In this document: piece after piece, positions 6,129 through 58,695 of the stretch
Layout: every line of letters starts with the position of its first letter
Position numbering within the stretch: the stretch's first letter is position 1
Assembly (NCBI GenBank): GCA_903850915.1
Contig: CAINMV010000009.1
Location: 64,599 to 128,598 of the forward strand
Direction: 5' to 3'
Origin: an uncultured Bacteroidota bacterium
Lineage (GTDB): Bacteria; Bacteroidota; Bacteroidia; UKL13-3
Length of the DNA: 64,000 nucleotides
Translations under genes and position numbers: made by a program
Notes under the pieces: generated by a model
Database searches by the model: none
Told to the model about the DNA's origin: nothing
Seen by the model: the letters and a program-made list of their open reading frames with translations, nothing else

Positions 6129-8525
6129 TTAGTTGATTCGTATTTCGTGTATGCTTCTTGCAGCTGATATTTTAATAATATTACGAGCTCTATTTCGTTC
6201 AGTTAGGTTGTATATTTTGCCATCTAGATTATATTCTTGAGCATGAAAAGGGATGCCATGAATAAGCAAGCGATATTTGTCGTATTCGGTGGTGAAATTA
6301 CCATTTATTGTTTGTCGGATACGTAAACTTTTTTTATTGCCTTTCACTTCAAATAGAACGACATTGAAATTTCCATTTTTATAGCCAAAATTATCTCCCG
6401 CATCTTCATAGATTCGACTTGTCCATTCGCCATCTTTATAAAATACATACAGCGTAAGTTCTTTAATTTCCTTTTCGCCTACAAATTGAATTTTAGGATA
6501 GGTTGGAATCACAGCCCCTGCTCTGATAAAGATAGGTATCTGGTCAATTGGTGTTGGGATATTTACTTCTTTACCGCCATGATAGAATTCGTTGTCCCAA
6601 TTAAAATACCATTCACCTGCAGGTAGATAAACATTCTTGTTTTCTTGGTTTTCAATTACCACAGGTGAAATCAGTAGATGATCACCAAACATAAATTCCT
6701 CGTTTCTGGCATGTGTCTCTGGGTTTTCTTGGTCTACAAAACTTAGTGGTCGCATCATCGGTGTTCCATGCTGCGCATGTTGCCAAAACGTAGTATAGAT
6801 ATAGGGAAGTAATCGATAACGCATTTCGATGAATTTTTTGTTGATGCGTTCATGTTTACTTCCAAAGCTCCACGGTTCTTGATCGAAGAGATCTTCGTTG
6901 CTAGCGCTATGGGTGCGCATAAAGCCATTAAAAACGGCCATCTGTAACCAACGTGTATATAGTTCTCCGGAAGGCTGTCCCACAAATCCACCGATGTCGC
7001 TACCGGCAAATGAAACCCCACTTACACTTAAGCGCTGTAGTTGCTGCGATGCAAGCCAAAGGTGTTCCCATGTAGCCGAATTGTCTCCAGTCCAAACGCT
7101 AGTGAACTGCTGAACTCCAGCATAACAGCTTCGTGTGATGGCAAAGGGGCGATGAGGCATAAGAAACTTCTTCAATCCATCTACGGTAGCTTTTGTCATT
7201 AGATGCCCATAAATATTATGTGCTTTGCGATGGCTGCAAGGAGAGCCGTCGTAATCATGGCGAACATCTTCTGGGAAGGTACCTATTTCAAAAACAGCGG
7301 GTTCGTTCATATCATTCCAAACACCACGAACACCAATATCTACTAATTCATCAAATAAATTAGCCCACCAAGTTCTCACTTTCGGATTTGTATAGTCAGG
7401 AAATACACATTTACCGGGCCATACATCACCTTCCATTAAGGCACCATCTGCACGTTTGCAAAAAACATCATTTGCTAAACCATCTTTATAAATAGGGTAA
7501 TCGATATCTACTTTGATGCCCGGATCAATAATTACGATGGTCTTGAAACCTTGTAATTTTAAGCTCTCCATCATAGCTTTAGGATTGGCAAAGTTCTCTT
7601 TGTGAAAAGTGAAACATCGAAATCCATCCATATAATCGATGTCTAGATATAAAGCATCACAGGGTATTTGTCGCCTCCTAAACTCTTGTGCCACTTCCAA
7701 CACTCGACCTTCGGTTAAGTAGCTCCAGCGGCATTGGTGGTAGCCTAAAGCCCATAATGGAGGTAGCTCTGGGGTTCCGGTAAGTTTGGTGTATTCTTGC
7801 GTTACTGTGAGTAATTTAGGTCCATAAATAAAATAATAATTCATTTCGCCTCCACGTGCCCAAAAACTACTAACGTTATCACGCTCATGTCCGAAGTCGA
7901 AGATGGTGCGGAAGGTGTTATCGAAGAAAATGCCATATCCTACACCATGATGTAGGCCATAATAAAAGGGTATGTTTTTGTATAGCGGGTCCGTATTTCC
8001 CCCAAAAGCATAGGCATCGGTTCCATAGTTTTCAAAGCGTTTGCCTCTCACATTAAAGGCTGTTGGTTTATCACCCAAGCCGTAAAATGCTTCGTCTGGC
8101 TGTATCTTTTTGCTTTTAAAAACTATTTTACCTCCTTTTGCCAAATAATGCATCCAATGAAAACCACTTTCGTCTTCATTTATTACAAAACCTTGAAGAT
8201 CCGTGATCGTTACCTTTAAATTGTTTTTGTTTATTCTACAATGAAGCAGTGCTGTTGAAATACGATAGTTTTCTTCTTCTTCATTCACCTGCAGCTCAAT
8301 AATTGATTCAGGATAGTTAGGTATTACCGCATAGCTAAAATCGCGTTCAAAGGTGCCTTCTGTGGCATAGCGAAATCGAATGATTCGGTCGCTCAATACT
8401 TTAATTTGAAGGATTATTTCGGAACTTGTATAGAAGTAGAATACGCTGCCTTCTCGTCTAAATTTAGTAATGTTATCTGGAAAATACTTTATCGAATATT
8501 TCGCATTCTTAGCTTCTATCTGCAT
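6129..8525 (-). CDS. glycoside hydrolase family 31 alpha-glucosidase / alpha-xylosidase
   Basis: 798 aa. GH31 catalytic-region signature GVWNDMNEP and surrounding (DIDYM, WTGDN). Confidence 0.85.
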   Translation of the reverse strand: MQIEAKNAKYSIKYFPDNITKFRREGSVFYFYTSSEIILQIKVLSDRIIRFRYATEGTFERDFSYAVIPNYPESIIELQVNEEEENYRISTALLHCRINKNNLKVTITDLQGFVINEDESGFHWMHYLAKGGKIVFKSKKIQPDEAFYGLGDKPTAFNVRGKRFENYGTDAYAFGGNTDPLYKNIPFYYGLHHGVGYGIFFDNTFRTIFDFGHERDNVSSFWARGGEMNYYFIYGPKLLTVTQEYTKLTGTPELPPLWALGYHQCRWSYLTEGRVLEVAQEFRRRQIPCDALYLDIDYMDGFRCFTFHKENFANPKAMMESLKLQGFKTIVIIDPGIKVDIDYPIYKDGLANDVFCKRADGALMEGDVWPGKCVFPDYTNPKVRTWWANLFDELVDIGVRGVWNDMNEPAVFEIGTFPEDVRHDYDGSPCSHRKAHNIYGHLMTKATVDGLKKFLMPHRPFAITRSCYAGVQQFTSVWTGDNSATWEHLWLASQQLQRLSVSGVSFAGSDIGGFVGQPSGELYTRWLQMAVFNGFMRTHSASNEDLFDQEPWSFGSKHERINKKFIEMRYRLLPYIYTTFWQHAQHGTPMMRPLSFVDQENPETHARNEEFMFGDHLLISPVVIENQENKNVYLPAGEWYFNWDNEFYHGGKEVNIPTPIDQIPIFIRAGAVIPTYPKIQFVGEKEIKELTLYVFYKDGEWTSRIYEDAGDNFGYKNGNFNVVLFEVKGNKKSLRIRQTINGNFTTEYDKYRLLIHGIPFHAQEYNLDGKIYNLTERNRARNIIKISAARSIHEIRIN

Positions 8526-32923: not shown

Positions 32924-35900
32924 TTAGTTTTTTATAAAGCGGTACAATTTTGATTTGTTATCTCCAATGTTAAGCATGTATGCGCCTGAAGCCAGACTTT
33001 GAAGGTTTATTTTCTGTAGCTCTGAACTAATAGTTCCTTGTGCTAAAACACGTCCTAAGTTATCGGTAATGGTATATGTTAAGCCTATCTCCAATTGGTT
33101 CGACTTTAATTCGATGAATTCATATGCTGGGTTTGGAGCGATTGAAATATTATGATACTTTTCTGTTTGTGTGATGCCAATTTTCGACATGACAACACAA
33201 GATGAGGTGTCGGTGCAGGTGCCAGTCTTTAATATTACGGCATAACTACCATTTTTAGTTGCCGTAAACGATTGCCCAGTTTCTCCACTAATTGGCTGTT
33301 TGCCATTATTACAGTCAATCCACTGATATGATAAACCTGTTGCAGCTGCACTAATTGTAAATCCGTTCACTGTAGTCGCTTTATTTATTGATGGGTAAAT
33401 AGTGGCATCTACAGAAGTACGAGTTGCCGACACGCATCCACTATCGATGGCATCAACATAATAGGTGGTAGTTAAACTTAAAACAGGCGTTGTCAAAGTG
33501 CTTCCGGTGCTTATTACTGTTCCGCCAAAGGCCACATTATACCATCTAGTATTTCCAGCGCTTGCTGCTGCGCTTAGCGTTACGGATGCAGGTGTGCAAC
33601 TATAGCCTGGGGTGGTGCTTGTAACCGTAGGTATTTTTTTAACTTTAGCAATCACTGCGATACGCGGATAGGAAGTACAACCATTGTCTTTGGTGTCTAT
33701 ATAAAAAGTATCGGTAACTGTTAAAGGTGAGGTTGTAAATGATGGGCCATTCCCTAATAATGTCCCTCCAATAGAATCGCTATACCAAGCAATTAATCCG
33801 CCACTTGCTGAAGCGCCTAAGGTGATGCTACCTGCTCCACATACCGATGCTGAGGTAAAGCCAGTAATGGTTGGCAATGGGTTTATGGTGGCTTTAGCCG
33901 GAGTACGAAAGGCTGTCACACATCCATTATTTGTAGCGTCAACATAATAGGTTGTAGTGGTAGTTAGCGATGGTGTAGTGAAGGATGTTCCTGTTGCTAT
34001 TGAAGTACCACCAGTTGAAGTGGTATACCAGTTAATAGTACCAGCACTGGCAGCGGCTCCAAGTGTTACCTTATCTCCAACACATCCACTGGCAGAGGTG
34101 GTTCCGTTGATTGTAGGATTGGAATAAACTGATGCAACAATGGTTGTTCTTGTTGCTGATGTGCAAACGCCTGAAACTACTTCTAGATAGTAAGTTCTTG
34201 GTGAGAAAATAACTGGAGTTGTGTATGTAGTTCCTGAATCTATCAAGGTTCCGCCACTTGAAGTAGAATACCAGTAAATAGTACCCGTGTTACATGTTGC
34301 ATTAAGCACCACACTTCCTGAGCCACATGTTCCCGCAGGGGTGGTGGATGTAATAATTGGTAATGGAATAATTGTTACGGTTATGGGTGTGCGAGATGCA
34401 GAAACGCAGCCATTGGCTGTTACTTCAACATAATATGTGGTAGTTGATGAAAGGACCGGAGTTGAATATGTAAGTCCACTAAAAAGCGAGGTGCCTCCTG
34501 TTGCGCTGCTATACCAATCAATTGTTCCTGCGCCAGTGCTCGCCGATAATACCGCGCTTCCAGGTCCGCATAATGTTGCTGGTGTAATTCCCGTAATGGT
34601 AGGGATTGGTTTTATCGTAGCAACAATAGGAGTTCTTGTGGCGCTGGCGCATCCCTTATAAATAGCATCAACATAATACGTTGTTGTGGCTGTTAAGCTT
34701 GGAGTAGTAAATGTAATTCCCGTGTCAAGTGCCATGCCTCCAGTAATATTTGCATACCAGTTCACGCTTCCCATAGCAGCGGTAGCGCCGAGCACTAAGA
34801 TTCCTGGGCCGCAACGTTGCGCTGCAGTGGTAGCCGTAATTTGTGGATTTAATATTGTTACTTTTTTTGCTGTAGAATTAGAGGATGATGGGCCAAAGAT
34901 GCAGCTTACAACGCATCGGAAATATGTGGTGTTTAGAAATCCAACAGCTGTAAATTGATTTTGCGTTGCTCCTGAAATATCGCTATAGTTAATGCCATTT
35001 ATAGACGACTGCCATTGATAACCTGTTCCTACCCCAATTCCTGTTGTACCTGATAAGCTTAGTAAAAAGTTGTTCCCTACACAAACAGTATCAAAGCTTG
35101 ATACGGTGGTTCCTGCAACCCCATTTAAGCATATTGGTCTAGGTACACCGTCAAACTCGTCAGCGCCAATATCCACTCTTGTTCCTCCTCCCTTGGTGCT
35201 TCCTGTTGGTCCAGGTCGGGTTTCATTATCAATGTCGGTGGAGATACCGCTTATTGCAAGCCCTCCAGATTCTAAGTAAGAAATTGCAGTTCCTGCGGTG
35301 TCAATGTGAAGGTTAACGTTGGCACTAGTTCCATTTGCATTCTTAAAGAGAGGATCTACGTTCGCGCTTAAAGTATCTTGGCCAGTGGCTATTTTCCAGT
35401 TGCCAAATGTGGTATAATCTGTTCCGTTTAGTCTTGATAAAAAGGTAATTGCACCATTCCAGTAGTTGTTTGCGGCAATTGTTTGACTTGTAAGTCCTGC
35501 TAATCTTAAAGCAAAGTTTTTGCCGGTGGAAAGTCCATTGCTTCGTGTATTACAGAAAATGTTGTTTTTCAATTCTCGTGAAATCGATGTTACGGAGCTT
35601 GCAAAGGCGATGGTGTTATTTGTTCCAGCGCCGACGTTACTTCCATTAATGCACACAGTATTAAAATAAAGATTATTTGTCCCACCATCTTCATTTATTC
35701 CAATCATTAATAGCGAGTTTGTAATTGAAGTGCCAGTTTCGTCTGTCCCAAGACGTATCATATTATTGTAAACATTAACTGCTCCGGAGGCGATATCAAT
35801 ACCTCGCAAAAAGCCCGATGATGTTGCTGATAGTGCTGAGAAACTGTGAATGGAGTTTTTATCAATTGTGTTTGTTCCTGCAGCGCCACTGTAATAAATT

Positions 35901-37705
35901 CCAACAATTGTAGGTCCTGCAGAAGTAGACGTGTTGGTTAACTTTAAGGTATGAATTGTATTTCCTGAAATAATTGCAGGCCCGGAGGTGGATAGATATC
36001 CAATTCCCAAAATTGCATTGTTCCCGGCCGTTGCCGATGTTTGAATTGCACTAGTTAAGTTTCTGATGGTGTTTCCTGAGATGGTAAACGCTCCGGCAGT
36101 AGAGGCAACCAAGATGCCAACCAAAGAACTAGCTTGAGTTCCTGCAGATAAGGCATTACTATTTATATTGGCAATTAAATTTCCAGTGATAGTTCCTGAT
36201 ATACCCGTTCCATTTAATATTATTCCTCGAATACTTTGAATAGAGGTACTTGTTGTTGCGCTAATGGCATTAATACTATTTGGAATGGTTGCGCTTCCAA
36301 TTGTATTGTTTGTGATGTTTACCGTGGTTCCTCCTGAGGCTGCAATGCCATTGAAAATTGGAGTAACTGTGGTTGATGAATTCAACACAATACCAGCTAT
36401 AATATTGTTAGATATGTTAATGACATTATTGGTTCCACCGCCAGTTCTAATACAAATTGGCCCACCGGTATTGGCTGTGGCTGTAAAGGTTATTCCTGGT
36501 GTGGCTGTAGTCGATCCAATAATATTACCTAATATAGTTCCTACGTTAGCATTTCCATTTGCAATATTTATTATTTCCATCGCAGTAGACCCTGCGTTTC
36601 CAGTGGTCATGTCGATATTTGTTATTGTATTGTTTTGCAGTGAAGTTGCTGCTCCTAAGCCTACCGAAATATCCATGGCCCAAAAGGAATATGTTGACGC
36701 TCCAGTTATAGTATATGTTCCACTACCAGCAGCATTGTTACCTCCAATGAAGTTTCCACTTATATTAAAGCCATTGGCTGCATTCGAAAGGTTAGCTACA
36801 TTGGGCGTAATCCAAAGTACGCGATGCACTGAGGTGCTACTTAGGTAATCGATGGCGGTGGATTGGTATAGATGATTATTGGTAACACTCCATGCCGTAT
36901 TTCCAAGGTCAACTTTTACGTGTGTAGAACCTGCAGTTGCGCTATAAATATCATAAATATTACAAGCGGTTATGGTGCAACTATCGTTATAGGTACCTGG
37001 GGTGGTTTGTGTTCCGTAAGCACAAATACCGATTGCTGGGAAAGTGGATGTCGTAGTTCCTGTTCCATGTACATTACAATATGAGATGGTGTTAAAGTCA
37101 TTACCCAATAGTCCAGTGCTACTTGCGCTATTAATAAAAATTACCCCTGCTGCTGTAGTTAAGGCTGGTGATGCATTGGTATTTTGTCCTTTTACATCAC
37201 AGTATTTTATTGTATTGTATAATGCATCGTTGATTAAACGAATAGCAACACCAGTTGTACTTGTGTTTATAATAGTAAGCGCAATATTGCTGCCCGTAGC
37301 ACCAGGACGGCCGTCAATTGTGAAATTCTTCGCACCATTTAAGTCGAATGTAGCTGTTGTGTTAGCACTAGTAATGGTTACAGCGGTTAACGATAGTGAT
37401 GGTCTTATCGTTACTGTATTTAGTGCTGAGTTTCCAGTATAGTTGCCAATTGCAATCGGGAATGTTTCACCAGTAGAATAGGAAGCATCAGTTAAGGTAA
37501 AGGTAACAGCAGCGCTTACGCCTTTGCTCGTTAAATCGGCTATGGCAGCGGTGATGGTAACATAGGTTTGTCCGCTACCAACATTGTAATTGCCAGATAA
37601 AGGTTGTGCTTTAGAGATTACGCCTAAAAAAACTAAGAAAAAAACCAGGTGAATTGCTTTGCTGTTGCAAAAATTACGTAGAAAGGTAAAGTAAATTTGG
37701 CTCAT
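32924..37705 (-). CDS. giant secreted protein (1593 aa): right-handed beta-helix region, ~7 tandem ~72-aa Cys-containing Ig-like repeats, T9SS C-terminal sorting domain
   Basis: Signal peptide. Thr/Ser/Asn/Gly-rich beta-helix-like repeats (NNxI, GNTI). Repeats of pattern P-x-IT...CG-GS...A...G.I.WY....GG......T.TTP.L..TTTYYV....GC.S..RT. C-terminus ...IAPNPAYEFIELKS...GAYMLNIGDNKSKLYRFIKN typical of type-A T9SS CTD. Confidence 0.75.
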   Translation of the reverse strand: MSQIYFTFLRNFCNSKAIHLVFFLVFLGVISKAQPLSGNYNVGSGQTYVTITAAIADLTSKGVSAAVTFTLTDASYSTGETFPIAIGNYTGNSALNTVTIRPSLSLTAVTITSANTTATFDLNGAKNFTIDGRPGATGSNIALTIINTSTTGVAIRLINDALYNTIKYCDVKGQNTNASPALTTAAGVIFINSASSTGLLGNDFNTISYCNVHGTGTTTSTFPAIGICAYGTQTTPGTYNDSCTITACNIYDIYSATAGSTHVKVDLGNTAWSVTNNHLYQSTAIDYLSSTSVHRVLWITPNVANLSNAANGFNISGNFIGGNNAAGSGTYTITGASTYSFWAMDISVGLGAATSLQNNTITNIDMTTGNAGSTAMEIINIANGNANVGTILGNIIGSTTATPGITFTATANTGGPICIRTGGGTNNVINISNNIIAGIVLNSSTTVTPIFNGIAASGGTTVNITNNTIGSATIPNSINAISATTSTSIQSIRGIILNGTGISGTITGNLIANINSNALSAGTQASSLVGILVASTAGAFTISGNTIRNLTSAIQTSATAGNNAILGIGYLSTSGPAIISGNTIHTLKLTNTSTSAGPTIVGIYYSGAAGTNTIDKNSIHSFSALSATSSGFLRGIDIASGAVNVYNNMIRLGTDETGTSITNSLLMIGINEDGGTNNLYFNTVCINGSNVGAGTNNTIAFASSVTSISRELKNNIFCNTRSNGLSTGKNFALRLAGLTSQTIAANNYWNGAITFLSRLNGTDYTTFGNWKIATGQDTLSANVDPLFKNANGTSANVNLHIDTAGTAISYLESGGLAISGISTDIDNETRPGPTGSTKGGGTRVDIGADEFDGVPRPICLNGVAGTTVSSFDTVCVGNNFLLSLSGTTGIGVGTGYQWQSSINGINYSDISGATQNQFTAVGFLNTTYFRCVVSCIFGPSSSNSTAKKVTILNPQITATTAAQRCGPGILVLGATAAMGSVNWYANITGGMALDTGITFTTPSLTATTTYYVDAIYKGCASATRTPIVATIKPIPTITGITPATLCGPGSAVLSASTGAGTIDWYSSATGGTSLFSGLTYSTPVLSSTTTYYVEVTANGCVSASRTPITVTIIPLPIITSTTPAGTCGSGSVVLNATCNTGTIYWYSTSSGGTLIDSGTTYTTPVIFSPRTYYLEVVSGVCTSATRTTIVASVYSNPTINGTTSASGCVGDKVTLGAAASAGTINWYTTSTGGTSIATGTSFTTPSLTTTTTYYVDATNNGCVTAFRTPAKATINPLPTITGFTSASVCGAGSITLGASASGGLIAWYSDSIGGTLLGNGPSFTTSPLTVTDTFYIDTKDNGCTSYPRIAVIAKVKKIPTVTSTTPGYSCTPASVTLSAAASAGNTRWYNVAFGGTVISTGSTLTTPVLSLTTTYYVDAIDSGCVSATRTSVDATIYPSINKATTVNGFTISAAATGLSYQWIDCNNGKQPISGETGQSFTATKNGSYAVILKTGTCTDTSSCVVMSKIGITQTEKYHNISIAPNPAYEFIELKSNQLEIGLTYTITDNLGRVLAQGTISSELQKINLQSLASGAYMLNIGDNKSKLYRFIKN

Positions 37706-43758: not shown

Positions 43759-43793
43759 CAAAAAAAATCGCTCCGAATTGGAGCGATTTTTTT
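43759..43793. terminator. bidirectional rho-independent terminator
   Basis: A8-TCGCTCC-GAATT-GGAGCGA-T9 perfect hairpin with A-run and T-run flanks, between convergent genes. Confidence 0.6.
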
Positions 43794-43811
43794 TATTGAA
43801 TAGTTCGAAAA

Positions 43812-46800
43812 TTAATTTAGAGTATAACGAATTCCAAATTGCATTTGCCAAACATCCTCTAATAAAAAACGAGGCTTTGTTACTGTTGTAGGCAACACCC
43901 CAGTTTGATTGTCAATTTGCATTTGATAAACAGGTTGATTTGTTAAAGCATCACGTTTTACAAACTTTAGCGGCACGTTATTCACTACTGAATTTCCAAC
44001 ACCCCAAGTTTTATTAATTAAGTTACCTAGGTTGTAAACATCAGCATGTATTTGAAGGTTGTGCTTGGTGTTTTTTACATGTATACCATAGTTTTGAGCA
44101 TAGCTTAAGTCGATGGTAGTAAACATTTTTAGAAGAGCACCATTACGTTCAGCATATTTCCCTCTATTAGACTTAAGATAATCGTTGCTATTTATTAAGT
44201 TGTCAAGGGCTGTTTGTTGGTCAGCAGCTGTATATGTTTTTGTGCCAACAGTTAATGGATTAAATTGCAAGTCAGAGGCTTTTGCTGGAACAAACATCAA
44301 ATCATTATTGCTAATTTGATCGCCGTTGATGTCTCCATTGATTATGAATGAATATCTTCCTTGGCTTCCACTTTGAAAGAACAATCCAAAGGTTTGAGAG
44401 AAATCTTTGGTATGCTCATGTGTATAAGAAAGTGCCGCAATAATACGGTGTCTTTGGTCAAAGTCTGAATAGGCTAAAGTAGGTGAGTTGTTTCCATTTA
44501 CAGTTAAATTTCCAGCCCAAGATGAATAAGCAATAGAGCTTGCACTTGTTAAGTCTTTTGCGCTAGCAAAGTTGTATGCAGCCATCAGATAAAGTCCTTT
44601 CTTAAAGGTCTTTTCTAGTTTCGCAGTAACAGACATCGACGAACCAGCGTTGTTGCTTCGTAAAACGGTAGCGTCATTTATCGATTTGTTGATTTTGTTC
44701 GTGTCGTTTTTGTTAGCCGCTGTAGCAACTAAATTGCCATAATAAGGTCGGGTATCAACACCTGCATAGTTTCCAACAGTTGGCTTAAGATTGGCATTGA
44801 TATAGTAAACGGCATTAACATTTTTGCTAAAAATGCCTTCTAATGTTGCAACAATTCCGAACGGTAATTTCGCATCAACAGCAATATTATTTCTCCATAA
44901 TTGAGGGAATTTGTATTTGTCATCTACCACCGCAATGTTATATGTTGCAGGCAATGAAGCTGTTGCAGGAATGTATTTATTAACATTTGGGCTAAATTGA
45001 TATGCTGTTGTGTTGTTAATATTAATGGCTCCAGTTAATACTCCATTGTTTCCTACTTGATTTGATATATAAACAAATGGAGGTGTTCCGCTAAATAATC
45101 CTGTTCCGCCTCTAATTTGCAGCGAACGGTCGCCTTTTACATTCCAATTGAATCCTAATCGTGGTGAAATCAAGATGTTAGTTCCTGGAAGTTTATCTGT
45201 ATGAAGTGCCATTGACGCACCTGTTTCATCCATGAATTTCAATGTATCCACTTTTGGATTGTTTAGCGCAGTGTTTCCATACATTGGAATGTCAAAACGT
45301 ATTCCTCCAGTTAATTTAAGTTTTTTAGTTACATTATACTCATCTTGAATGTATATTCCTGGATAGTTAACTTTGGTCGTTGCAGTTGGTAATGCATTGT
45401 TGGCCAGCGCTGAATATGTAAGTTGATATTGACGCACAGAAACAACGCCTCCAGTTGTATCACCATTTGCCGATTTGTAAAAGTCGTTAAGTGAGTTGAA
45501 AGCAAAGTTTCCATAATAGCGAGGCGTAAATGTATTCTCAAATTTGTAAGATTGGAAATTTATGCCTGCAGTAATAGTATGTTTTTTGAAGTATTTGGTG
45601 AAGTTATCTTGGAATTGAATAATATCGGTATTCAAGCGGTTGTTCGGAGTGAATAGTTCATAACCAAAGGAAGTCAATGTTTTTCCACCTGATAAAATAT
45701 CTACAAATGGGAAGGGTGTTTCTTCACGTGATGATCGGAAATCGCGCATGGCTGTATAGCCAACTTGAACTGAATTGGTCATGCTATTGCCGATTGTTGT
45801 ATTTAATTCACCTATCACAGAAATTAGGTTGTTGTTAATAATATAGTTAGCGTTTTGGAAAGGTAGTGCATCTGTATTATTAGAACGATTTCCACTAATT
45901 ACACCGCTATTACTCAATGGAACTTCACGAGATGAGGTTAAGCTGTTATATCTAACACTTACACGATTGTTTTTGTTTACGTTCCAATCTAATTTGGCCA
46001 AAAATTTATTACTTTGTGTTAGCAATGAATAATTTTCGTACTTCCCAGCATCATAACCATATTTATTTAATAGGAAGTCATGTAATGAGTCTAATGTTGC
46101 TGCAGAAACTCTTGTAACGTTTGATCCCGACAATCCTGGACGTGCCGCTACATATTGAGTAGCAGGGTCGCTACGACGCTCAAATTCACCATTTACAAAG
46201 AAGAATAATTTGTTTTTAATAATTGGTCCTCCTAAACGGAATCCTGTTTGGTTTACACTGAATTTATTACTGGTTATCGTGTTTTCACCTGCATAGCGTC
46301 CAACCATAGACTCATTTCTTGAGTTTCTGAAAATCGATCCTTCAATTTTGTTTGTTCCTGAGCGTGTTACTGTGTTAATTCCAGCACCAGTAAATCCGTT
46401 GTAACGAATATCAAATGGAGCTAAGTTAACTTGAATTTCTTGTATCGCATCTAAAGATATTGGCGTCGAGTTGGTTTGTCCTCCTGGAGCAGAAGCCAAG
46501 CCGAAACTGTTGTTAAATACCGAACCATCGATAGTTAAGTTATTATAACGGCTATCCTGACCAGCGAAGGAAATACCTGCGCCTGCAGTAGAAGCTACTG
46601 AGCTTGAACGTCCTTGCGGTGTTAAACGTAGGAAGTCATATAAGCTTCTATTAATTGTAGGTAATGTTTGAAGCTGTTCTTTGCTGATGTTTGTAGATGC
46701 TCCAGTTCTTTTGTCGTTAAGCAAGCTGTTCTTGTCAGCAAAAATTTCAGCTTCTTTCAAGTTTACCGTGTTTTCCGAAAGTGTGAAATTCGCTTCATAA

Positions 46801-47105
46801 GCTTGGCCTAGGCTTAAAAAAACATTCTCAAGCTTTTGAGTTTGCATACCAAGATAAGTTACAGTAACGGTGTAAGGACCGCCAATACGAAGTGACGGTA
46901 AATTGTAAGAACCATCATTACGGCTAGTGTTTCCAGAAATACTTCCGGATGGTGTGTGAACGGCAGTAATAATAGCTCCAATTACAGGCGCTCCTTTACT
47001 GTCGTTAATGTTTCCAAACATGGAAGACGAGGTTGCATTCTGGCCGAAGCTGAATGCCACATTAAAGATTAAAATTAAGGTTAGTAAACGTTTTAATAAA
47101 TGCAT
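43812..47105 (-). CDS. TonB-dependent receptor (1097 aa, CarbopepD_reg N-domain, SusC-like size) without adjacent SusD
   Basis: Signal peptide, GAIITAVHTPSGSISGNTSRNDGSYNL domain, plug and barrel, C-terminal ...FGIRYTLN. Confidence 0.8.
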   Translation of the reverse strand: MHLLKRLLTLILIFNVAFSFGQNATSSSMFGNINDSKGAPVIGAIITAVHTPSGSISGNTSRNDGSYNLPSLRIGGPYTVTVTYLGMQTQKLENVFLSLGQAYEANFTLSENTVNLKEAEIFADKNSLLNDKRTGASTNISKEQLQTLPTINRSLYDFLRLTPQGRSSSVASTAGAGISFAGQDSRYNNLTIDGSVFNNSFGLASAPGGQTNSTPISLDAIQEIQVNLAPFDIRYNGFTGAGINTVTRSGTNKIEGSIFRNSRNESMVGRYAGENTITSNKFSVNQTGFRLGGPIIKNKLFFFVNGEFERRSDPATQYVAARPGLSGSNVTRVSAATLDSLHDFLLNKYGYDAGKYENYSLLTQSNKFLAKLDWNVNKNNRVSVRYNSLTSSREVPLSNSGVISGNRSNNTDALPFQNANYIINNNLISVIGELNTTIGNSMTNSVQVGYTAMRDFRSSREETPFPFVDILSGGKTLTSFGYELFTPNNRLNTDIIQFQDNFTKYFKKHTITAGINFQSYKFENTFTPRYYGNFAFNSLNDFYKSANGDTTGGVVSVRQYQLTYSALANNALPTATTKVNYPGIYIQDEYNVTKKLKLTGGIRFDIPMYGNTALNNPKVDTLKFMDETGASMALHTDKLPGTNILISPRLGFNWNVKGDRSLQIRGGTGLFSGTPPFVYISNQVGNNGVLTGAININNTTAYQFSPNVNKYIPATASLPATYNIAVVDDKYKFPQLWRNNIAVDAKLPFGIVATLEGIFSKNVNAVYYINANLKPTVGNYAGVDTRPYYGNLVATAANKNDTNKINKSINDATVLRSNNAGSSMSVTAKLEKTFKKGLYLMAAYNFASAKDLTSASSIAYSSWAGNLTVNGNNSPTLAYSDFDQRHRIIAALSYTHEHTKDFSQTFGLFFQSGSQGRYSFIINGDINGDQISNNDLMFVPAKASDLQFNPLTVGTKTYTAADQQTALDNLINSNDYLKSNRGKYAERNGALLKMFTTIDLSYAQNYGIHVKNTKHNLQIHADVYNLGNLINKTWGVGNSVVNNVPLKFVKRDALTNQPVYQMQIDNQTGVLPTTVTKPRFLLEDVWQMQFGIRYTLN

Positions 47106-47434
47106 ATAAAAAGGGGTTTAGAGTGAGTTTGCTTTTGATAATTTAACAATATGAACTTTATTTAAAGGATGCAAAAATAGATACCTTGAGTTCTCAAATA
47201 GTTAACATAGTTTTAATTTAATAAGACCAAAATGTGTCGCTAGTGTTAATAAAAAAATGTTGTTTCATCACCTTCATTTTACTTGAAAACAAAATTATGT
47301 TTCCTGTTTTATGGTCAAAATGAATTTGGGTGAATTTATTAACATTTTATTCGCATTTAAGTTTTTTGCTTCCCAAGAAAATTTAACTGAGTGTTTAAAT
47401 TGCCTTTACAATGCCTTTATAACAGGTAACTTAT

Positions 47435-48289
47435 TTGCGTTATTTATTTAACGTGATGGATAAAAGGGAAATCGAAATTGTTGTAGTGTCTGATGTTCAT
47501 TTAGGTACTTACGGTTGCCATGCCATGGAACTAAACATTTATCTCAATTCCATAAAGCCTAAAATTCTGGTTTTAAATGGCGACATCATAGATTTCTGGC
47601 AATTCAGCAAGTCGTATTTTCCAGATTCGCACATTCGAATCATTACAACCATTTTAAAGCTAATCGAAAATGGAACCACAGTTTATTATATCACAGGTAA
47701 TCATGATGAAAAACTTAGAAGTTTCACAAACTTACATCTTGACAAGTTAATTCTAACGGATAAGTTAATTATGAATGTTGATGGGAAGTCAATGTGGTTT
47801 TTCCATGGCGACATTTTTGATTTTACCATGAAGCATGCGAAGTGGTTGGCCAAAGTTGGAGGGAAAGGGTATGATGCTTTAATTGTGTTTAATAGAATTG
47901 TGAATTATATATCCATGAAAATTGGACGTGGTAGGATTTCACTTTCAAAAAAGATAAAAGATGGAGTGAAGTCTGCCGTTTCTTTCATCTCTGATTTTGA
48001 AGAAACGGTAATCGAGCTGGCATTGGAGCAAAACTTTGATTATGTGCTTTGCGGTCACATTCATTCTCCAGTCATAAAAAACATAAAAAGAGAGGGGCGA
48101 GAGCTCGTGTATTTAAATTCAGGTGATTGGATAGAAAACTTAACAGCGCTAGAGTACAAAGATAAAATTTGGCGGATATTTCGATTTCATGATGAAGTAG
48201 AGCAAACGAATACTCCGCAAAAGGCAAATAGACAAAAGGAGGTGAAGAAAGAGTTGGAAACGATACAATTAAATTCAAACAAATTCTAA
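47435..48289 (+). CDS. LpxH-family metallophosphoesterase (UDP-2,3-diacylglucosamine diphosphatase-like)
   Basis: VVSDVHLG...LVLNGDIIDFW...ITGNHDE...CGHIH calcineurin-like motifs arranged as in LpxH. Confidence 0.55.
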   Translation: MRYLFNVMDKREIEIVVVSDVHLGTYGCHAMELNIYLNSIKPKILVLNGDIIDFWQFSKSYFPDSHIRIITTILKLIENGTTVYYITGNHDEKLRSFTNLHLDKLILTDKLIMNVDGKSMWFFHGDIFDFTMKHAKWLAKVGGKGYDALIVFNRIVNYISMKIGRGRISLSKKIKDGVKSAVSFISDFEETVIELALEQNFDYVLCGHIHSPVIKNIKREGRELVYLNSGDWIENLTALEYKDKIWRIFRFHDEVEQTNTPQKANRQKEVKKELETIQLNSNKF

Positions 48290-48299
48290 ATCTAAAATC

Positions 48300-49313
48300 A
48301 TGAATGTACTTTTTGCCATTCAAGGCACTGGCAATGGCCATTTAAGCAGAGCCAAAGAAATAATACCATATTTGTTGAAATATGCGAATGTGGATTTATT
48401 GGTAAGCGGAACTCAATCACAAATTGAGATGCCATATATTATTAAATACAAAAAACGGGGTATTTCATTTTCTCCAGGAAAAGGCGGTGGCATCGATTAC
48501 TACGATACTATCAAGAGCTTTAAGCCGTTTAATTTTCATAAGGATATTGTACAACTTCCGGTTGAGAATTATGATTTAGTACTTAATGATTTTGAGCCAA
48601 TTTCAGCTTGGGCCTGTAAGCTAAAAAGAAAAAGATGTATTGCAATTAGTCATCAAGCCTCTTTCTTATCGAGGGCAACGCCAAGACCTGAACAGAAAAA
48701 TTTATTTTGTGAAAAGCTCTTTAAACATTACGCACCTTGTTCTGATTATGTTGGATTTCATTTTCAGAAATATGATCAATTTATTAAGACACCCATCATT
48801 AGAAGTGATGTGCGAAATCTGGAGATTGCAAATGGCAGTCATGTCACCGTTTATCTCCCAGCCTTCAGTCACACAATTTTAATCCCTTTCTTAGAGAAAA
48901 CAACCAATGTTACTTGGGAGGTTTTTAGTAAGGAAGTCAAGGAAGAAATAATTCTTCCCAATATACGCATTATGCCAATCACCAACGAAGGCTATCTTAA
49001 AAGCTTGGCAAGCAGTCAAGGACTTTTAACAGGTGGTGGTTTTGAAGGTCCTGCAGAGGCAACATACCTGCAAAAAAAGGTGATGATGATTCCAATTGCA
49101 GGCCATTATGAACAGCAATGCAATGCCGTTGCGTTTAAGCAGCTGGGTGGCACAGTAGTGAAAGATATTAATCATGATTTTCGAGTGAAGTTAAATCAAT
49201 GGTTAACTTTCATTGAGCCTGTAAAGTTAAGCTTTCCAGATATCACAGCCGAAATTGTCTATCATATTCTAGAGTCGAAGTCAGCAACTCCAGCATTGGC
49301 TTTTCACTATTGA
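48300..49313 (+). CDS. glycosyltransferase of the MurG-like / MJ1255 (GT-B) family
   Basis: N-terminal FAIQGTGNGHLSRAKEI, C-terminal LLTGGGFEGPAEA nucleotide-sugar-binding-like motif. 11 bp after the upstream gene. Confidence 0.45.
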   Translation: MNVLFAIQGTGNGHLSRAKEIIPYLLKYANVDLLVSGTQSQIEMPYIIKYKKRGISFSPGKGGGIDYYDTIKSFKPFNFHKDIVQLPVENYDLVLNDFEPISAWACKLKRKRCIAISHQASFLSRATPRPEQKNLFCEKLFKHYAPCSDYVGFHFQKYDQFIKTPIIRSDVRNLEIANGSHVTVYLPAFSHTILIPFLEKTTNVTWEVFSKEVKEEIILPNIRIMPITNEGYLKSLASSQGLLTGGGFEGPAEATYLQKKVMMIPIAGHYEQQCNAVAFKQLGGTVVKDINHDFRVKLNQWLTFIEPVKLSFPDITAEIVYHILESKSATPALAFHY

Positions 49314-49347
49314 GGAACTTTCAACATTGCAAAATGTAAGATATGCA

Positions 49348-49445
49348 GTTTTTTGCCATGTTTTTCAAAGTCAATGATGGCTTAGCATTCACTTCCATTT
49401 CCTTACATAGATATGCCACAATACCTTTGCCAAATCGCGGGTGTT
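49348..49445 (-). pseudogene. decayed ~98-bp copy of the 3' end of the UvrD-family helicase gene (matches 51614..51708, ~85% id, with indels)
   Basis: Direct nucleotide comparison within the window. Compare ...tttttgccatgtttttcaaagtcaatgatggcttagcattcacttcc... with ...tttttgccatattgttcaaagtcgatgatggctttgcgttcacttcc.... Confidence 0.7.
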
Positions 49446-49481
49446 TAACTATATAATCCAGTTCCTTATATAACTTGTAAT

Positions 49482-49815
49482 GAGCGATCGCCTTTTACAT
49501 TCCAATTGAACACCATTGTGGTGAAATTAAGATGTTAGTTCCTGGAAGTTTATCCTTATGAAGTGCCATTGACGCACCTGTTTCATCCATGAATTTCAAT
49601 GTGTTCACTTTTGGATTGTTTAGCGCAGTGTTTCCATACATTGGAATGTCAAAACGTATTCCTCCAGTTAATTTAAGTTTTAAGTTACATTGTACTCATC
49701 TTGAATATAAATCTAGGATAATTTTTTTGCAATTGCTTTTGGCAAATCATGGTTTGCTAGTGCCGAATAAGTTAGTTGTTATTGACGCACAGAAACTACG
49801 CCACCTTTAGTAGTG
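49482..49815 (-). pseudogene. decayed ~335-bp copy of an internal segment of the TonB-dependent receptor gene (matches 45122..45473; first ~230 bp ~93% id, then diverged with indels)
   Basis: Direct nucleotide comparison within the window (cgccttttacattccaattgaa...gttagttcctggaagtttatc...gtttccatacattggaatgtcaaaacgtattcctccagttaatttaag). Confidence 0.75.
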
Positions 49816-49832
49816 CCATTTGTGATAAGAAA

Positions 49833-50795
49833 TCACCACCTGTATTTTATCCAAGATGCTTGCTTTGCTTTGGTAAAGAAGGTCCAGGCAATAAATCGGC
49901 TAGTTTTATTGCCCTGATGCATGGTAACTGTTTTGACTTCTTGAACATCAACACTTTCTAATTTGTTGTAAAAGTTTTTTAAATTGTATTCTTTGGAGAC
50001 TAATGTCGAATACCAAAGGCAAGAATTTGAAAATTTTTTGCTTTGGGAAATCATGGTTTCAATAAATGTAATTTCACCCCCTTCGCACCAAAGTTCTTTC
50101 GCTTGTCCACCGAAATTCAAAGATGTATCTCTTGTTTTTTTCTGGTTTAGATTATTTAATTTACGAATGTTTCCTGCCCTAGCTTCTATTTCAGAGGCAT
50201 GAAAAGGAGGGTTGCAAATGCTAAGGTCGAAATATTCATCGGGTTGTATGACGCCTTCAAAAATATCCTCGGGGTTGGCCTGTAGGCGAAAGGCTACCTT
50301 GCCTCTTAAAGTCTCGTTCTTGGCAACAATCATGGATGCAGACTCAATAGCTTCTTTTGCAATATCAGAACCTACAAAGGTCCAGCCCAGCATTGCATTT
50401 CCGAGTATTGGATAAATACAATTGGCTCCAACACCAATATCTAAACATCTTATTTTATTTCCATTGGGTATCTTACTATGATTGCTGCTTCCTAGCATGT
50501 CAGCAAGGTATAGGAGATGATCTGCTCTGCCTGGAATGGGCGGACATAAATACCCTGTCGGTATACTCCAAAAATTAATATCGTAATAATATCGTAGCAA
50601 AGCTTTATTAAGAGTCATTACTGCTTCTGCGTTCGAAAAATCAATGGATGCATCACCGTATGGATTAGGTTTTACAAATGCAGTCAGCTCCTCGCAATGT
50701 TGAATGAGTGCCTTGAAATCATAAGGTTGACGATGCTTGTTGAGAGGATGTAAATTGGTTTTCTCATTTGGATGCGCCTTTTTTTCTTGCAACAT
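49833..50795 (-). CDS. rlmF: 23S rRNA (adenine1618-N6)-methyltransferase
   Basis: 320 aa. RlmF-like N-terminus (LHPLNKHRQPYDF...) and NPPF catalytic motif (DLSICNPPFHAS). Confidence 0.7.
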   Translation of the reverse strand: MLQEKKAHPNEKTNLHPLNKHRQPYDFKALIQHCEELTAFVKPNPYGDASIDFSNAEAVMTLNKALLRYYYDINFWSIPTGYLCPPIPGRADHLLYLADMLGSSNHSKIPNGNKIRCLDIGVGANCIYPILGNAMLGWTFVGSDIAKEAIESASMIVAKNETLRGKVAFRLQANPEDIFEGVIQPDEYFDLSICNPPFHASEIEARAGNIRKLNNLNQKKTRDTSLNFGGQAKELWCEGGEITFIETMISQSKKFSNSCLWYSTLVSKEYNLKNFYNKLESVDVQEVKTVTMHQGNKTSRFIAWTFFTKAKQASWIKYRW

Positions 50796-50906
50796 TTATT
50801 TTTTATTGGATTAGGTTGATATTTGATTTATGGAAAATAATTGTAGTGCATTTTTACACTATAAGGAGATGCTCGTTTTCCACGTTAATGATCAAAAATA
50901 ACAAGA

Positions 50907-51365
50907 TTACATTTTACGACACCATTTTATTTTTACAGCACTTAGGATATCGGTTTCAATTCTTAAATGTTTTAAAATTTCAAATTCGTTTTTGATGTAA
51001 AAGGGTAGCGGAGATACGTAGGCTGTTCCATTTTGCTTTTGATAATTATCGTGGTCTATGACCCATCCAAAAAGTATTTTATTTTCGTCTTTTAGTGTCT
51101 TCAATAATATTCTTCCAAGTCCTTGGCCTTGATGTTTCGAATGCACTATAATTGAAAACCGAACTTCATTTTCTTTTTCAAAATCAACAGCCCATGCAAT
51201 CACTTTTTGATGGATCTCTTCAATAATATAATAGTTGTAGTTTTCAACATCATTTAATAAAGTTGAAAATCGGCCTTTCAATTTTATCGGGTATTCGTTA
51301 TCCCATAATTCATTGATTTGATCTTCTTGATTTTGAGATAATGTTTTAGTTTTAATGACATTCAT
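50907..51365 (-). CDS. GNAT family N-acetyltransferase
   Basis: 152 aa. HQGQGLGRILL acetyl-CoA binding motif. Confidence 0.65.
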   Translation of the reverse strand: MNVIKTKTLSQNQEDQINELWDNEYPIKLKGRFSTLLNDVENYNYYIIEEIHQKVIAWAVDFEKENEVRFSIIVHSKHQGQGLGRILLKTLKDENKILFGWVIDHDNYQKQNGTAYVSPLPFYIKNEFEILKHLRIETDILSAVKIKWCRKM

Positions 51366-51568
51366 TTTTGATGATGTAGGCTATGCGAAACCAAAATCAG
51401 ATCTTGAATTAAGTCTTTTCACGACCAATAAATCGCTTACGGCTTAATAAAAAATTAATGGCTCTTCCAATATTCTTATTCAAGGAGCATAATTTTGTTC
51501 ATTGGCATTTTGTATTAATCGTATCCGAATTGGTTTTTGTTGGGCCAATTGGGTTAAAGGAAGCGATT

Positions 51569-53887
51569 TCAATTTTGGATTACCTTCAATTTTGCAAATC
51601 TCAATATCAATACCTTTTTGCCATATTGTTCAAAGTCGATGATGGCTTTGCGTTCACTTCCTTTTCCTTCCATAGATGCCACGATTCCTTTGCCAAATCG
51701 CTGGTGTTCCACTAAATTTCCGGTATCTAGATTTTCCGTATTGTCTGCTTCGAAATTCGTTGGTTCGCTTGGCTGTGCTTTATGCAAGGGTTTGAAATTA
51801 ATGTCGGGTAGTATCAGTTTATTGGTGTTGCCCAACTGTGCCTTCAAAGAATTTGGCTTGAAGTTGCTGCGTTCTTCGTCTAAATTGAATTTACGTGTTG
51901 GTATATTAGGCTTAACAGGAGCCATAAACTGTGTGTATTCCACGGGTATTTCGTCTAAAAACCGACTCGGTTCATTACTAATGCGTTGCCCAAATCTAAA
52001 GCGGGTGTCAGCAAAGCTTAATGTTACTTTACGCTCGGCTCTGGTGATAGCAACATAAAACAACCTTCGTTCCTCTTCTAAATCATTGCGCGATGACAAT
52101 GCCATTTGACTTGGAAATAAATTCTCTTCCATTCCCACCAAATATACATGAGGGAACTCTAAGCCTTTTGCAGCATGAATGGTCATTAATGTCACCTGAT
52201 CAGTATTCTCACTGTCTTTGTCGGCATCGGTGAGTAAAGCAATATCTTGTAAATACAAATCTAGTGTAATCGGCTCTCCACTTTCATCTTTGGCCTCACT
52301 AAATTCTTTTATACCGTTTAAAAGCTCTTCTACATTTTCGAAACGGCTCATACCTTCCACGGTCTTATCTTCGTAAAGGTCTTTTAATAAGCCACTTTCT
52401 TTAGCTACACGATAGGCCACGTCGTAGGCGCTCTTTCTGGTGAGTTCAGAAGCGAAACTTTTTAAAAGTAAAACAAACTCATGCACTTTATTGCCAGAAC
52501 TTCCTACTTTGTTTAATTCATGGCTATTAATTATTTCCCAAATGGATTTATTTTGTTCGTTGGCCAACAAACTAATTTTATCCATGGTGGTCTTTCCAAT
52601 TCCTCTTACTGGATAATTAATAATCCGCTTTAACGCCTCTTCATCATTAGGATTGACGAGCAATCGGAGGTAGGCAATTAAATCTTTGATTTCTTTTCGT
52701 TGATAGAAACTCATGCCACCATAAATTCGATAGGCAATATTCATCTTACGCAACGCTTCTTCTAATGCTCTACTTTGTGAGTTGGTTCGATATAAAATCG
52801 CAAACTCTTTGTTGAACATCTGATGTTGCATCTTGTCTTCGAAAATTAAATCAGCAACAAGCTTACCTTCATCATTGTCTGTAAGTGTTTTGAAAATTTT
52901 AATCGGATCGCCTTGAGCATTATCGGTCCAAACGTTTTTCTCTAATTGATCTTTGTTCTTTTTTATTAGTTCACCTGCAGCCTTTACAATGGTTTGTGTG
53001 CTTCTATAGTTTTGTTCTAACTTAAAGGTTTTCATTTCCGGATATTCCCGGTTGAAATTTAAGATATTACGAATGGTGGCACCACGAAATGCATAAATAC
53101 TTTGGGCATCATCACCAACAACACATATATTATGGTGTACTGCCGCAAGCATCTTTAAAATCATGTATTGTGAGAAATTGGTATCTTGATACTCATCAAC
53201 CATGATGTACTCAAACTTATGCTGATAGTGCTCTAATATTTCAGGGAACTTGTCGAGTAGCTCGTACATTTTCAAAAGCAAATCATCGAAATCCATGGCC
53301 CCCGATTTAAAGCAACGTTGCGCATAAGTGGCATATATCTCGGCCATTTTACTTAAACCTGCAGTTTGGTCGGAAGCCTCTTTCTCTTTATCCTTATAAT
53401 AATCGTAAGGAAATATCAACGCATTTTTTGCTTGTGAGATTCGCGTGTAAACAACATTGGGTTTATATACTTTATCGTCCAGACCCATTTCATTGATGAT
53501 CGTTTTTAACAGGCTTTTGGCATCATCAGTATCATAAATTGTAAAGGTCTTCGGATAACCAAGTTTATCAGCTTCAATACGCAATATTTTAGCAAAAACA
53601 CTATGGAAGGTGCCCATCCACAAGTTCTTTGCTTCGCCGCCTACCACTTTCTCAATGCGAAGTCGCATTTCTTTCGCTGCTTTATTGGTAAAGGTTAGTG
53701 ATAAAATACGAAACGAATCGATATTTTGCTGAAGCATATACGCGATGCGATAGGTCAGTACACGAGTTTTGCCAGATCCGGCACCTGCTATTATCATCAC
53801 CGGACCTTCAATGGCTTTTACTGCTTCTTGTTGGGCGGGATTAAGTTCTTTTAAATAGTCTACTGAAGTTTGCAATTCTTTACTCAC
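51569..53887 (-). CDS. ATP-dependent DNA helicase, UvrD/PcrA/Rep family
   Basis: LNPAQQEAV...IIAGAGSGKTRVLTYRIAYML, DEYQDTN, 772 aa. Confidence 0.85.
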   Translation of the reverse strand: MSKELQTSVDYLKELNPAQQEAVKAIEGPVMIIAGAGSGKTRVLTYRIAYMLQQNIDSFRILSLTFTNKAAKEMRLRIEKVVGGEAKNLWMGTFHSVFAKILRIEADKLGYPKTFTIYDTDDAKSLLKTIINEMGLDDKVYKPNVVYTRISQAKNALIFPYDYYKDKEKEASDQTAGLSKMAEIYATYAQRCFKSGAMDFDDLLLKMYELLDKFPEILEHYQHKFEYIMVDEYQDTNFSQYMILKMLAAVHHNICVVGDDAQSIYAFRGATIRNILNFNREYPEMKTFKLEQNYRSTQTIVKAAGELIKKNKDQLEKNVWTDNAQGDPIKIFKTLTDNDEGKLVADLIFEDKMQHQMFNKEFAILYRTNSQSRALEEALRKMNIAYRIYGGMSFYQRKEIKDLIAYLRLLVNPNDEEALKRIINYPVRGIGKTTMDKISLLANEQNKSIWEIINSHELNKVGSSGNKVHEFVLLLKSFASELTRKSAYDVAYRVAKESGLLKDLYEDKTVEGMSRFENVEELLNGIKEFSEAKDESGEPITLDLYLQDIALLTDADKDSENTDQVTLMTIHAAKGLEFPHVYLVGMEENLFPSQMALSSRNDLEEERRLFYVAITRAERKVTLSFADTRFRFGQRISNEPSRFLDEIPVEYTQFMAPVKPNIPTRKFNLDEERSNFKPNSLKAQLGNTNKLILPDINFKPLHKAQPSEPTNFEADNTENLDTGNLVEHQRFGKGIVASMEGKGSERKAIIDFEQYGKKVLILRFAKLKVIQN

Positions 53888-58440: not shown

Positions 58441-58695
58441 AGTTACAAAGATAAGGTAATTCTTGATTCTCGTTTTTAGGTAAAAAAATAAAAATAGCAT
58501 CAGATATTGTCTGATTCTCATGCGTTTGGATGCATTTGATTTGTTTTTTTTGTGATACTAGACTAGGTTTAAAAGTTTATTCAGTAAAGGGTTTAAGCGT
58601 TGTGCGGTGCAAAATAGTTATATTAATTCTCTTGAAAATGTAATCTTCATTTTGTAGATAAATGAATTATTGGTATCTTTGCAACCTCGAAAAAT

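Follow-up and report, generated by a model that had tools for sequence, protein, structure and literature searches.

The stretch of DNA analysed here (hereafter the window) comprises 64,000 nt from an uncultured Bacteroidota bacterium (contig CAINMV010000009.1, positions 64,599 to 128,598, renumbered from the first letter of the stretch) and contains convergent genes for a glycosyltransferase (GT) and RlmF that are separated by a 519-nt gap (49314-49832). The whole of this spacer was found to be occupied by a mosaic of two gene-fragment copies, one of the 3' end of a UvrD/PcrA helicase gene and the other of an internal piece of a TonB-dependent receptor gene, both of which are present as full-length genes with their Pfam domains on either side of the spacer (Table 1). 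This mosaic, referred to below as the patch, is probably a non-functional templated insertion of 518 nt (about 49305-49822), copied from these two nearby templates and placed at one site. Insertion at one point of sequence copied from two templates, followed by neutral decay and gene conversion, explains all of the boundaries.

That the spacer is not random sequence, as claimed in a first-pass annotation of the window, was evident from comparison of the window with itself by blastn. Thus, positions 49350-49454 matched 51615-51717 of the helicase gene with 86% identity (E 2e-29), a 2-bp insertion included, and positions 49440-49822 matched 45082-45469 of the receptor gene with 84% identity over 388 columns (E 1e-115). 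Both matches were plus/plus, in agreement with the source orientation assigned to the fragments by the first-pass annotation, and these were the sole dispersed repeats of the window, the one further match being an intragenic repeat in a large open reading frame (ORF). The two copies and the 2-bp insertion had thus been recognized correctly, although the limits given for them (49348-49445 and 49482-49815) were too narrow, the true extents being 49302-49454 for the helicase copy and 49440-49822 for the receptor copy.

At lower identity, the helicase copy extends to the left as far as 49302, which corresponds to 51567, an extension that is significant (equalled in score by only 8 of 2000 shuffles). 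The copy spans the last 149 nt of the gene, stop codon included, together with two bases beyond, and overlaps the last four codons of the GT gene. Conceptual translation of the copy gave KKLHILHFAMLKVPQ followed by two stops, as compared with KKVLILRFAKLKVIQN followed by one stop for the C-terminus of the helicase, and the helicase stop codon therefore lies within the copy. The 2-bp insertion shifts the reading frame, in-frame stops are present, mismatches are distributed 8/4/9 by codon position, and the stitched translation is identical to the helicase C-terminus at 32 of 49 residues. The receptor copy contains four small indel sites and several in-frame stops, and its stitched translation is identical to the receptor at 108 of 132 residues; the receptor of a sister species (locus L022), used as a tblastn query, also matched the patch, in three frames. 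Stops were noted in all three frames of the sense strand of the genes, as expected from the earlier description of the gap as non-coding, and two plus-strand ORFs in the patch (61 and 73 aa) were without Pfam match. Homology beyond both outer ends (49302 and 49822) was not significant in shuffle tests.

The two copies overlap by 15 nt at an internal join (J2; join sequence CGCGGGTGTTTAACTATATAATCC). The corresponding source sites, GGTGTTCCACTAAAT in the helicase gene (51703-51717) and GGTGTTCCGCTAAAT in the receptor gene (45082-45096), are identical at 14 of 15 positions. To the left of this block the patch tracks the helicase gene and to the right of it the receptor gene, and outside the block the two sources are unrelated to each other. 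Only these two source sites were found in 64 kb when the J2 pattern was searched with up to two mismatches, for which 0.21 chance matches were expected. These findings indicate that J2 arose by illegitimate joining, mediated by microhomology, of the two neighbouring genes in question and no others, and the restriction of the block to these neighbours argues strongly against an origin of the fragments from unlinked paralogues. The helicase piece precedes the receptor piece, the reverse of their order in the sources, so that the reversed (b/a) junction between two flanking genes reported in the first-pass annotation was upheld, with a block that is unique to both sources. In E. coli, tandem amplicons that measure 7-32 kb and have 4-15 bp of homology at their borders have been attributed to long-distance template switching (PMC1428787), and the J2 sites, which are directly oriented and 6.6 kb apart, match these observations in size and spacing.

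At the left edge of the patch, helicase homology begins at TTT (49302-49304), which is codon 335 (Phe) of the GT gene and is common to the helicase site (GCGATTT/CAA). At the right edge (...CCATTTG/TGATAAG), which is 10 nt from the rlmF stop, receptor homology stops at 49822 and is followed by TGATAAGAAA and then by the rlmF stop codon (49833-49835). Joining of 49304 to 49823 (i.e., excision of 49305-49822) gave ...TTG GCT TTT TGA TAA GAAA TCA, with the reconstructed junction ...CATTGGCTTTT^TGATAAGAAATCACC. The rejoined GT ends in ...ALAF followed by its stop, 7 nt from the rlmF stop, and the GT orthologue of the sister species, the only one found, ends in ...RLAF (...ERLAF) followed by a stop. 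The recovery upon excision of both an in-frame stop and an LAF-stop end indicates that a single ancestral point corresponds to both outer edges of the mosaic; it lies inside the sole stretch of about 17 nt where an insertion harms neither gene. The sequence predicted for the empty site (i.e., the junction free of the patch) is CATTGGCTTTTTGATAAGAAATCACC.

The present GT ends in ...PALAFHY followed by a stop, its last two codons and its TGA being read from the antisense of the helicase copy. In the ungapped register, in which 49313 corresponds to 51578, the patch has TGA where the helicase source has TGG, and with the source sequence of today the GT frame would run 49 codons into the patch. This comparison suggests that a later TGG-to-TGA nonsense change trimmed the tail of GT to two residues.

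Changes in the patch were assigned with the sister-species locus as outgroup, the receptor of which is 83% identical in amino acid sequence and 75.7% identical in nucleotide sequence to that of the window. In the parts of the receptor copy that flank the central block described below, patch-only changes were distributed 8/8/5 by codon position (chi-square p 0.65) and gene-only changes 1/0/19 (chi-square p 4e-8), with 16 patch-only versus 1 gene-only changes at first and second positions together. GC-to-AT changes outnumbered AT-to-GC changes among those specific to the patch (13 versus 4). The even spread over codon positions and the AT bias identify the patch as the copy in decay and the gene as the source under constraint. 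These results indicate that the patch decays neutrally and has acquired about 13% substitutions on its own branch, along with indels and stops.

Divergence at first and second codon positions was alike for the helicase piece (12/94, about 13%) and the receptor flanks (16/116, about 14%), which fits a single origin and one age for both pieces. Synonymous sites are saturated between the two species (synonymous divergence, dS, greater than 3), so that the insertion would be much younger than the species split, in agreement with its absence from the sister locus. Third-position differences from the copy amounted to 47% for the receptor gene (27/58; 45082-45140 and 45353-45469) and 19% for the helicase gene (9/47; 51567-51717). 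Import of a divergent allele into the receptor gene might account for this excess; three-way parsimony at third positions, by which the gene seemed to evolve faster than the neutral patch, was not relied on because the outgroup is saturated.

In the first-pass annotation, the receptor copy was described as well conserved in its first part and scrambled in the rest. Such unevenness was confirmed, but its pattern is that of an identity mosaic, in which a centre of about 95% lies between edges of about 69-75%. The central block differs from the receptor gene at 12 of 210 positions as opposed to 45 of 173 for the flanks (approximately 95% versus about 74% identity, Fisher p 3e-8), shares exact runs of 26, 46 and 72 nt with the gene and contains an open frame of about 55 codons. 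Three-way alignment of the block revealed 9 patch-only, 2 gene-only and 50 sister-only changes, the patch and the gene sharing 50 derived states against the sister. This distribution points to a later ectopic gene-conversion tract of approximately 210 nt that would have homogenised the middle of the copy and left its edges diverged, probably by transfer from the gene to the patch. Error-prone synthesis near the joins was rejected as a cause of the diverged edges, their 25% divergence being far in excess of any polymerase error rate.

Concerted evolution provides known cases of ectopic gene conversion between genes and pseudogenes or repeats in their vicinity. The likeness to such cases lies in a central tract that is nearly identical to the live gene between diverged edges, and the runs of 26-72 nt suffice for homologous pairing; the difference is that the 388-nt fragment contains a single tract and gives no sign of receptor diversification. 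Two short-read contigs of the same species, L015 (ending at window position 49652) and L028 (ending at 49627), stop inside the 95%-identical block, and these ends are probably repeat-induced assembly breaks.

The same 519-nt gap was present in 7 of 7 conspecific contigs from independent assemblies that span it (L010-L014 and L027, about 99.8% identical, and L015, 100% identical), and the four proteins that make up the GT 90% cluster each have 337 aa. Polymorphic sites among strains, counted from pairwise megablast alignments, were more frequent in the patch (5 in 531 bp) than in its surroundings (52 in 20,470 bp; p 0.012), and this raised polymorphism argues against constraint. The first-pass annotation had proposed that related strains be checked for an intact tandem duplication or a clean junction; neither of these, nor an intermediate with one deletion, occurred in the conspecific contigs examined.

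Comparison with the sister locus revealed that genes for an NAD-binding protein, the receptor, the phosphoesterase and GT are kept there as the only four-gene block common to both species. In the sister, the GT gene and a convergent aldo-keto reductase gene have 4 nt in common (7811-7814) and the patch is absent, the end of GT being a synteny breakpoint between the species. In more distant relatives, GT is followed by a GNAT gene (24-nt overlap) or by a BamD-like gene; a correspondence of that GNAT to the GNAT of the window was considered and rejected (E 74). The rlmF neighbourhood was shared by none of the relatives examined (44-55% relatives in a contig scan and three loci without synteny). 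The nearest RlmF outside the species was 63% identical in a protein search while the receptor has an 83% sister orthologue, and either the rlmF of the sister species is unsampled or the gene diverges unusually fast in this lineage. Receptor homologues at 57-58% were without synteny and did not polarise the gene order, and a scan of JGI metagenomes for UvrD returned only 22-28% relatives. Since relatives have other neighbours and share no rlmF neighbourhood, the ancestral order could not be polarised.

If the patch arose in one event, the insertion would have split a very tight convergent junction by separating the last sense codon of GT from its stop, 7 nt from the rlmF stop. Three serial microhomology-mediated template switches would most likely have been made by a nascent strand that had stalled or broken, the first leading from the target to the helicase site at TTT (J1), the second from there into the receptor gene at the 15-nt block and the third out of that gene to the target again at a T-run (J3). 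The templates, both in direct orientation, would have been the helicase 3' end (149 nt) at 2.3 kb on the right and the interior of the receptor gene (388 nt) at 4.4 kb on the left, and copying would have left the source genes intact. An event of this kind would be classed as fork stalling and template switching or microhomology-mediated break-induced replication (FoSTeS/MMBIR), or as a long-distance template switch as proposed for E. coli. GC skew is positive across most of the window, which by the usual rule is taken as movement of forks in the plus direction. Forks moving in this direction would meet rlmF, GNAT and the helicase gene, transcribed head-on, at the insertion point, which might explain stalling at this site.

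Complex rearrangements with templated insertions that were ascribed to FoSTeS/MMBIR have been described for human copy-number variants (reviewed in PMC2583991). The patch resembles these in that short stretches in direct orientation were taken from templates close by, with a microhomology of 15 nt at J2 and sources that are still intact at distances of 2.3 and 4.4 kb, and in that, by reconstruction, a single-site insertion is found in an otherwise intact target. It differs from them in that the organism is a bacterium, no gene has changed in copy number, and the mechanism is read from one decayed example in which two of three joins have 4 nt of microhomology or less. The joins of microhomology-bounded tandem amplifications in E. 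coli (Slack et al. 2006, PMC1428787) provide a second likeness, namely a b/a junction between directly oriented sites, here 6.6 kb apart and with 15 nt of imperfect homology. In contrast with those joins, there is no duplication of the segment in between; what is present is no more than about 0.5 kb from around the join, at a third site between the sources, and the patch is old and fixed in a natural population rather than the product of laboratory amplification.

Several observations weigh against a single templated insertion. Microhomology at J1 is only 3 nt (TTT), as opposed to 15 nt at J2, and at J3 it is 0-4 nt in a T-run and ambiguous after about 13% decay. The beginning of the patch 2 nt past the helicase stop codon had to be treated as coincidence, and no explanation was found for the higher third-position divergence of the receptor flanks (27/58) than of the helicase piece (9/47). 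The ancestral junction is a reconstruction for which no pre-insertion allele was found among the contigs examined, and it is based on a 3-residue LAF-stop match to one sister and on an in-frame stop (roughly 5% chance); GT C-terminal tails were variable among representatives of the family and added no support for this end. Most documented cases of composite templated insertions of about 0.5 kb are from eukaryotes, and we know of no bacterial case of that size. None was found in the literature searched.

A related possibility is that the b/a junction was formed beforehand, in a transient duplication or an excised circle of about 45082-51717, and that a piece of about 0.5 kb from around it was captured in the GT-rlmF spacer. 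[quoted passage not shown] This origin predicts the same anatomy, i.e., one insertion point and a b/a join on microhomology, and the sequence gives nothing that separates it from direct template switching. Bacterial duplications of this size with microhomology at their bounds are well documented (PMC1428787), and intragenomic single strands are known from Acinetobacter to integrate ectopically at microhomologies, giving patches of about 3-100 bp (bioRxiv 10.1101/2023.11.22.568220). The likeness to SPDIR is that ectopic DNA from the same genome was integrated at (extended) microhomologies without RecA-type homology and remains as a foreign patch at one site. However, the 518 nt from two sources seen here fall outside the range of 3-100 bp, single-source patches, for which reason an SPDIR microindel as such was rejected, and capture of a junction demands two separate rare events as compared with one multi-switch event. 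Junction capture was thus judged unlikely, and direct templated insertion is retained.

According to a second alternative, the helicase stub is native. GT and the helicase gene would once have been abutting convergent neighbours whose stops overlapped by 10 nt, as at 49304-49313, until rlmF and GNAT, a 200-nt upstream spacer and the receptor filler were inserted into the helicase gene at 51717, with duplication of the last 149 bp of the helicase gene such that it stayed whole. The end of the copy exactly at the helicase stop and its abutment on the GT end would thereby be explained, synteny with the sister breaks at the GT-rlmF junction, and the 4-nt overlap of the sister GT gene with its convergent neighbour indicates that overlap is normal here. 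On the other hand, a 2.3-kb insertion from three templates would be needed, with two functional genes brought from an unknown locus and the originals then lost, and the in-frame TGA TAA directly after the patch would become a coincidence, as would the LAF-stop match. In addition, GT was beside a helicase gene in none of the relatives examined, its neighbours being the aldo-keto reductase, unrelated GNAT and BamD-like genes. A native stub is for these reasons very unlikely.

The first-pass annotation had favoured a tandem duplication followed by two complementary deletions. With the limits found here, the 6.6-kb segment 45082-51717 would have been duplicated, the duplication would have become fixed, and the two independent deletions would have left the stubs. 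One deletion would have removed rlmF and GNAT from copy 1, and the other the 5' half of the receptor gene, the phosphoesterase gene and GT from copy 2. Such a history predicts the b/a order, the orientation and the microhomology at the join, and is compatible with the finding that all genes between the two sources are single-copy and intact within the window. The mapping of both outer edges to one ancestral point weighs strongly against it. Thus, the first deletion would need its start precisely at the GT stop and its end 2 nt beyond that of the helicase, while the second would need an end that is 10 nt away from the rlmF stop and coincides, in ancestral position, with the start of the first; the chance of this was estimated as around 1e-5 from freedoms of about 2.3 and 4.4 kb. 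Neither two copies of the intervening genes nor independent deletion endpoints were seen, the intermediate occurs in none of the conspecific contigs examined, and tandem duplications are normally lost precisely, by homologous recombination. In contrast, the single insertion needs just one coincidence, i.e., a patch that begins at the helicase stop codon. The one insertion explains the anatomy with fewer coincidences and was accordingly preferred over duplication and two deletions, a history that is very unlikely.

No function was evident for the patch. A search for Rfam families found no match inside it at E values up to 1, its predicted folds were ordinary relative to those of shuffled sequences (z -1.07 for the plus and -0.29 for the minus strand), and promoter- and terminator-like sites were at or below chance. 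A structured non-coding RNA was rejected on the first two grounds. No inverted repeat was found that pairs the patch ends at 49302 and 49822, the flanks GGCTTTT and TGATAAG revealed no target duplication, and the patch ORFs lack Pfam matches; a mobile element (insertion sequence or miniature inverted-repeat transposable element) was therefore also rejected. The patch is most likely the non-functional fossil of a replication or repair accident, the only certain effects of which are the two-residue extension of GT and the widening of the convergent spacer from 7 nt to 519 nt.

Retention of the patch for a function was considered in two forms, i.e., a GT 3' untranslated region from which read-through RNA is antisense to the receptor and helicase mRNAs, or a silent donor cassette for the surface receptor. 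The first would couple receptor and helicase expression; in the second, the patch would trade sequence with a surface-exposed receptor by gene conversion. The plus-strand runs of 26-72 nt identical to the receptor gene are such that GT read-through would complement receptor mRNA, no intrinsic terminator was found after GT, at least one exchange with the receptor gene occurred, and the patch is fixed in all sampled strains. Against a function of either kind, polymorphism in the patch is raised rather than lowered, patch-specific changes are AT-biased and even across codon positions, Rfam matches are lacking, folds are ordinary (z -1.1 and -0.3), promoter-like sites are at chance level and there is a single cassette only. 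Selection for such a role is highly doubtful.

An origin of the fragments as relics of unlinked paralogues (i.e., another receptor gene and another helicase gene), which the first-pass annotation already held to be less likely, is scarcely credible: the distance of the patch flanks from the receptor gene (0.25-0.26) does about equal that of the sister orthologue, but neutral decay explains this distance given the 16 to 1 excess of patch-only changes at first and second positions, the 15-nt block at the join belongs to precisely the two neighbouring genes, the closest receptor homologue outside the species among 5.8 billion proteins is the 83% sister orthologue, with none closer in that collection, which includes the assemblies of this species, although the search did not extend to the complete genome, and the DNA of the sister orthologue is only 71.5% identical to the patch as compared with 84% for the neighbouring gene.

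No new biological system is revealed by the patch, which is a modest curiosity and a further natural case of a known type of mutational event. As a templated insertion it would be a clean natural example of a two-template composite formed through long microhomology and fixed in an uncultured, freshwater-type Bacteroidota population. Multi-switch errors of replication or repair, which are best known from human copy-number variants and laboratory amplifications in E. coli, would accordingly leave lasting scars in wild bacterial genomes too. The neutral copy beside its constrained sources provides a small internal clock, from which neutral decay, AT-biased mutation and ectopic gene conversion can be read at one locus. 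In practical terms, the 95%-identical block breaks short-read assemblies, and gene callers could take the 0.5-kb gap for a missed gene.

Table 1. Positions in the window of the patch, its sources and the surrounding genes
Feature	Position	Strand	Remarks
Decayed copy of helicase 3' end	49302..49454	-	Source 51567-51717; covers ~49 C-terminal codons (Tudor-domain region), the stop and 2 nt more
Decayed copy of internal piece of receptor gene	49440..49822	-	Source 45082-45469, about aa 546-675
Join J2	49440..49454		15-nt overlap of both copies
Central block of receptor copy, putatively re-homogenised	49499..49708		Source 45141-45352; ~95% identical to receptor gene
New GT end	49305..49313	+	Two extra codons (His, Tyr) and new TGA, antisense of helicase copy
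Inferred former GT stop (TGA, then TAA) and rest of 7-nt ancestral spacer	49823..49832	+	Reconstruction; no receptor homology
Source 1, intact helicase 3' end	51567..51717	-	Within gene 51569-53887
Source 2, internal segment of intact receptor gene	45082..45469	-	Within gene 43812-47105
TonB-dependent receptor (CarboxypepD_reg, Plug, OMP_b-brl_4)	43812-47105	-	Pfam; intact
Metallophosphoesterase	47435-48289	+	Pfam
Glycosyltransferase (GT)	48300-49313	+	Pfam
rlmF	49833-50795	-	Pfam; stop codon 49833-49835
GNAT acetyltransferase	50907-51365	-	Pfam
UvrD/PcrA helicase	51569-53887	-	Pfam; PcrA_UvrD_tudor domain at aa 723-765; intact

Features of the window other than the patch were also noted. The receptor gene is followed, 18 nt past its TAA stop, by a textbook bidirectional intrinsic terminator (AAAAAAAATCGCTCCAATTCGGAGCGATTTTTTTT, 43760-43794, minus strand), which explains sub-threshold Rfam matches at this site (Leu_leader and STnc450); nothing comparable was found for GT and rlmF. 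In contig L012, a run of N near window position 48190 in the phosphoesterase gene resulted in a 288-aa call without Pfam hit, an assembly gap rather than biology. The intragenic repeat is a 207-nt direct repeat with 67% identity (33827-34033 and 34556-34762) inside an ORF of 1593 aa (32924-37705) and probably represents repeated protein domains. Finally, strains differ by a 9-10-nt insertion or deletion of the TGTGTTTTAT type at approximately 58552-58555, in an intergenic position beside a RuvX-like gene.

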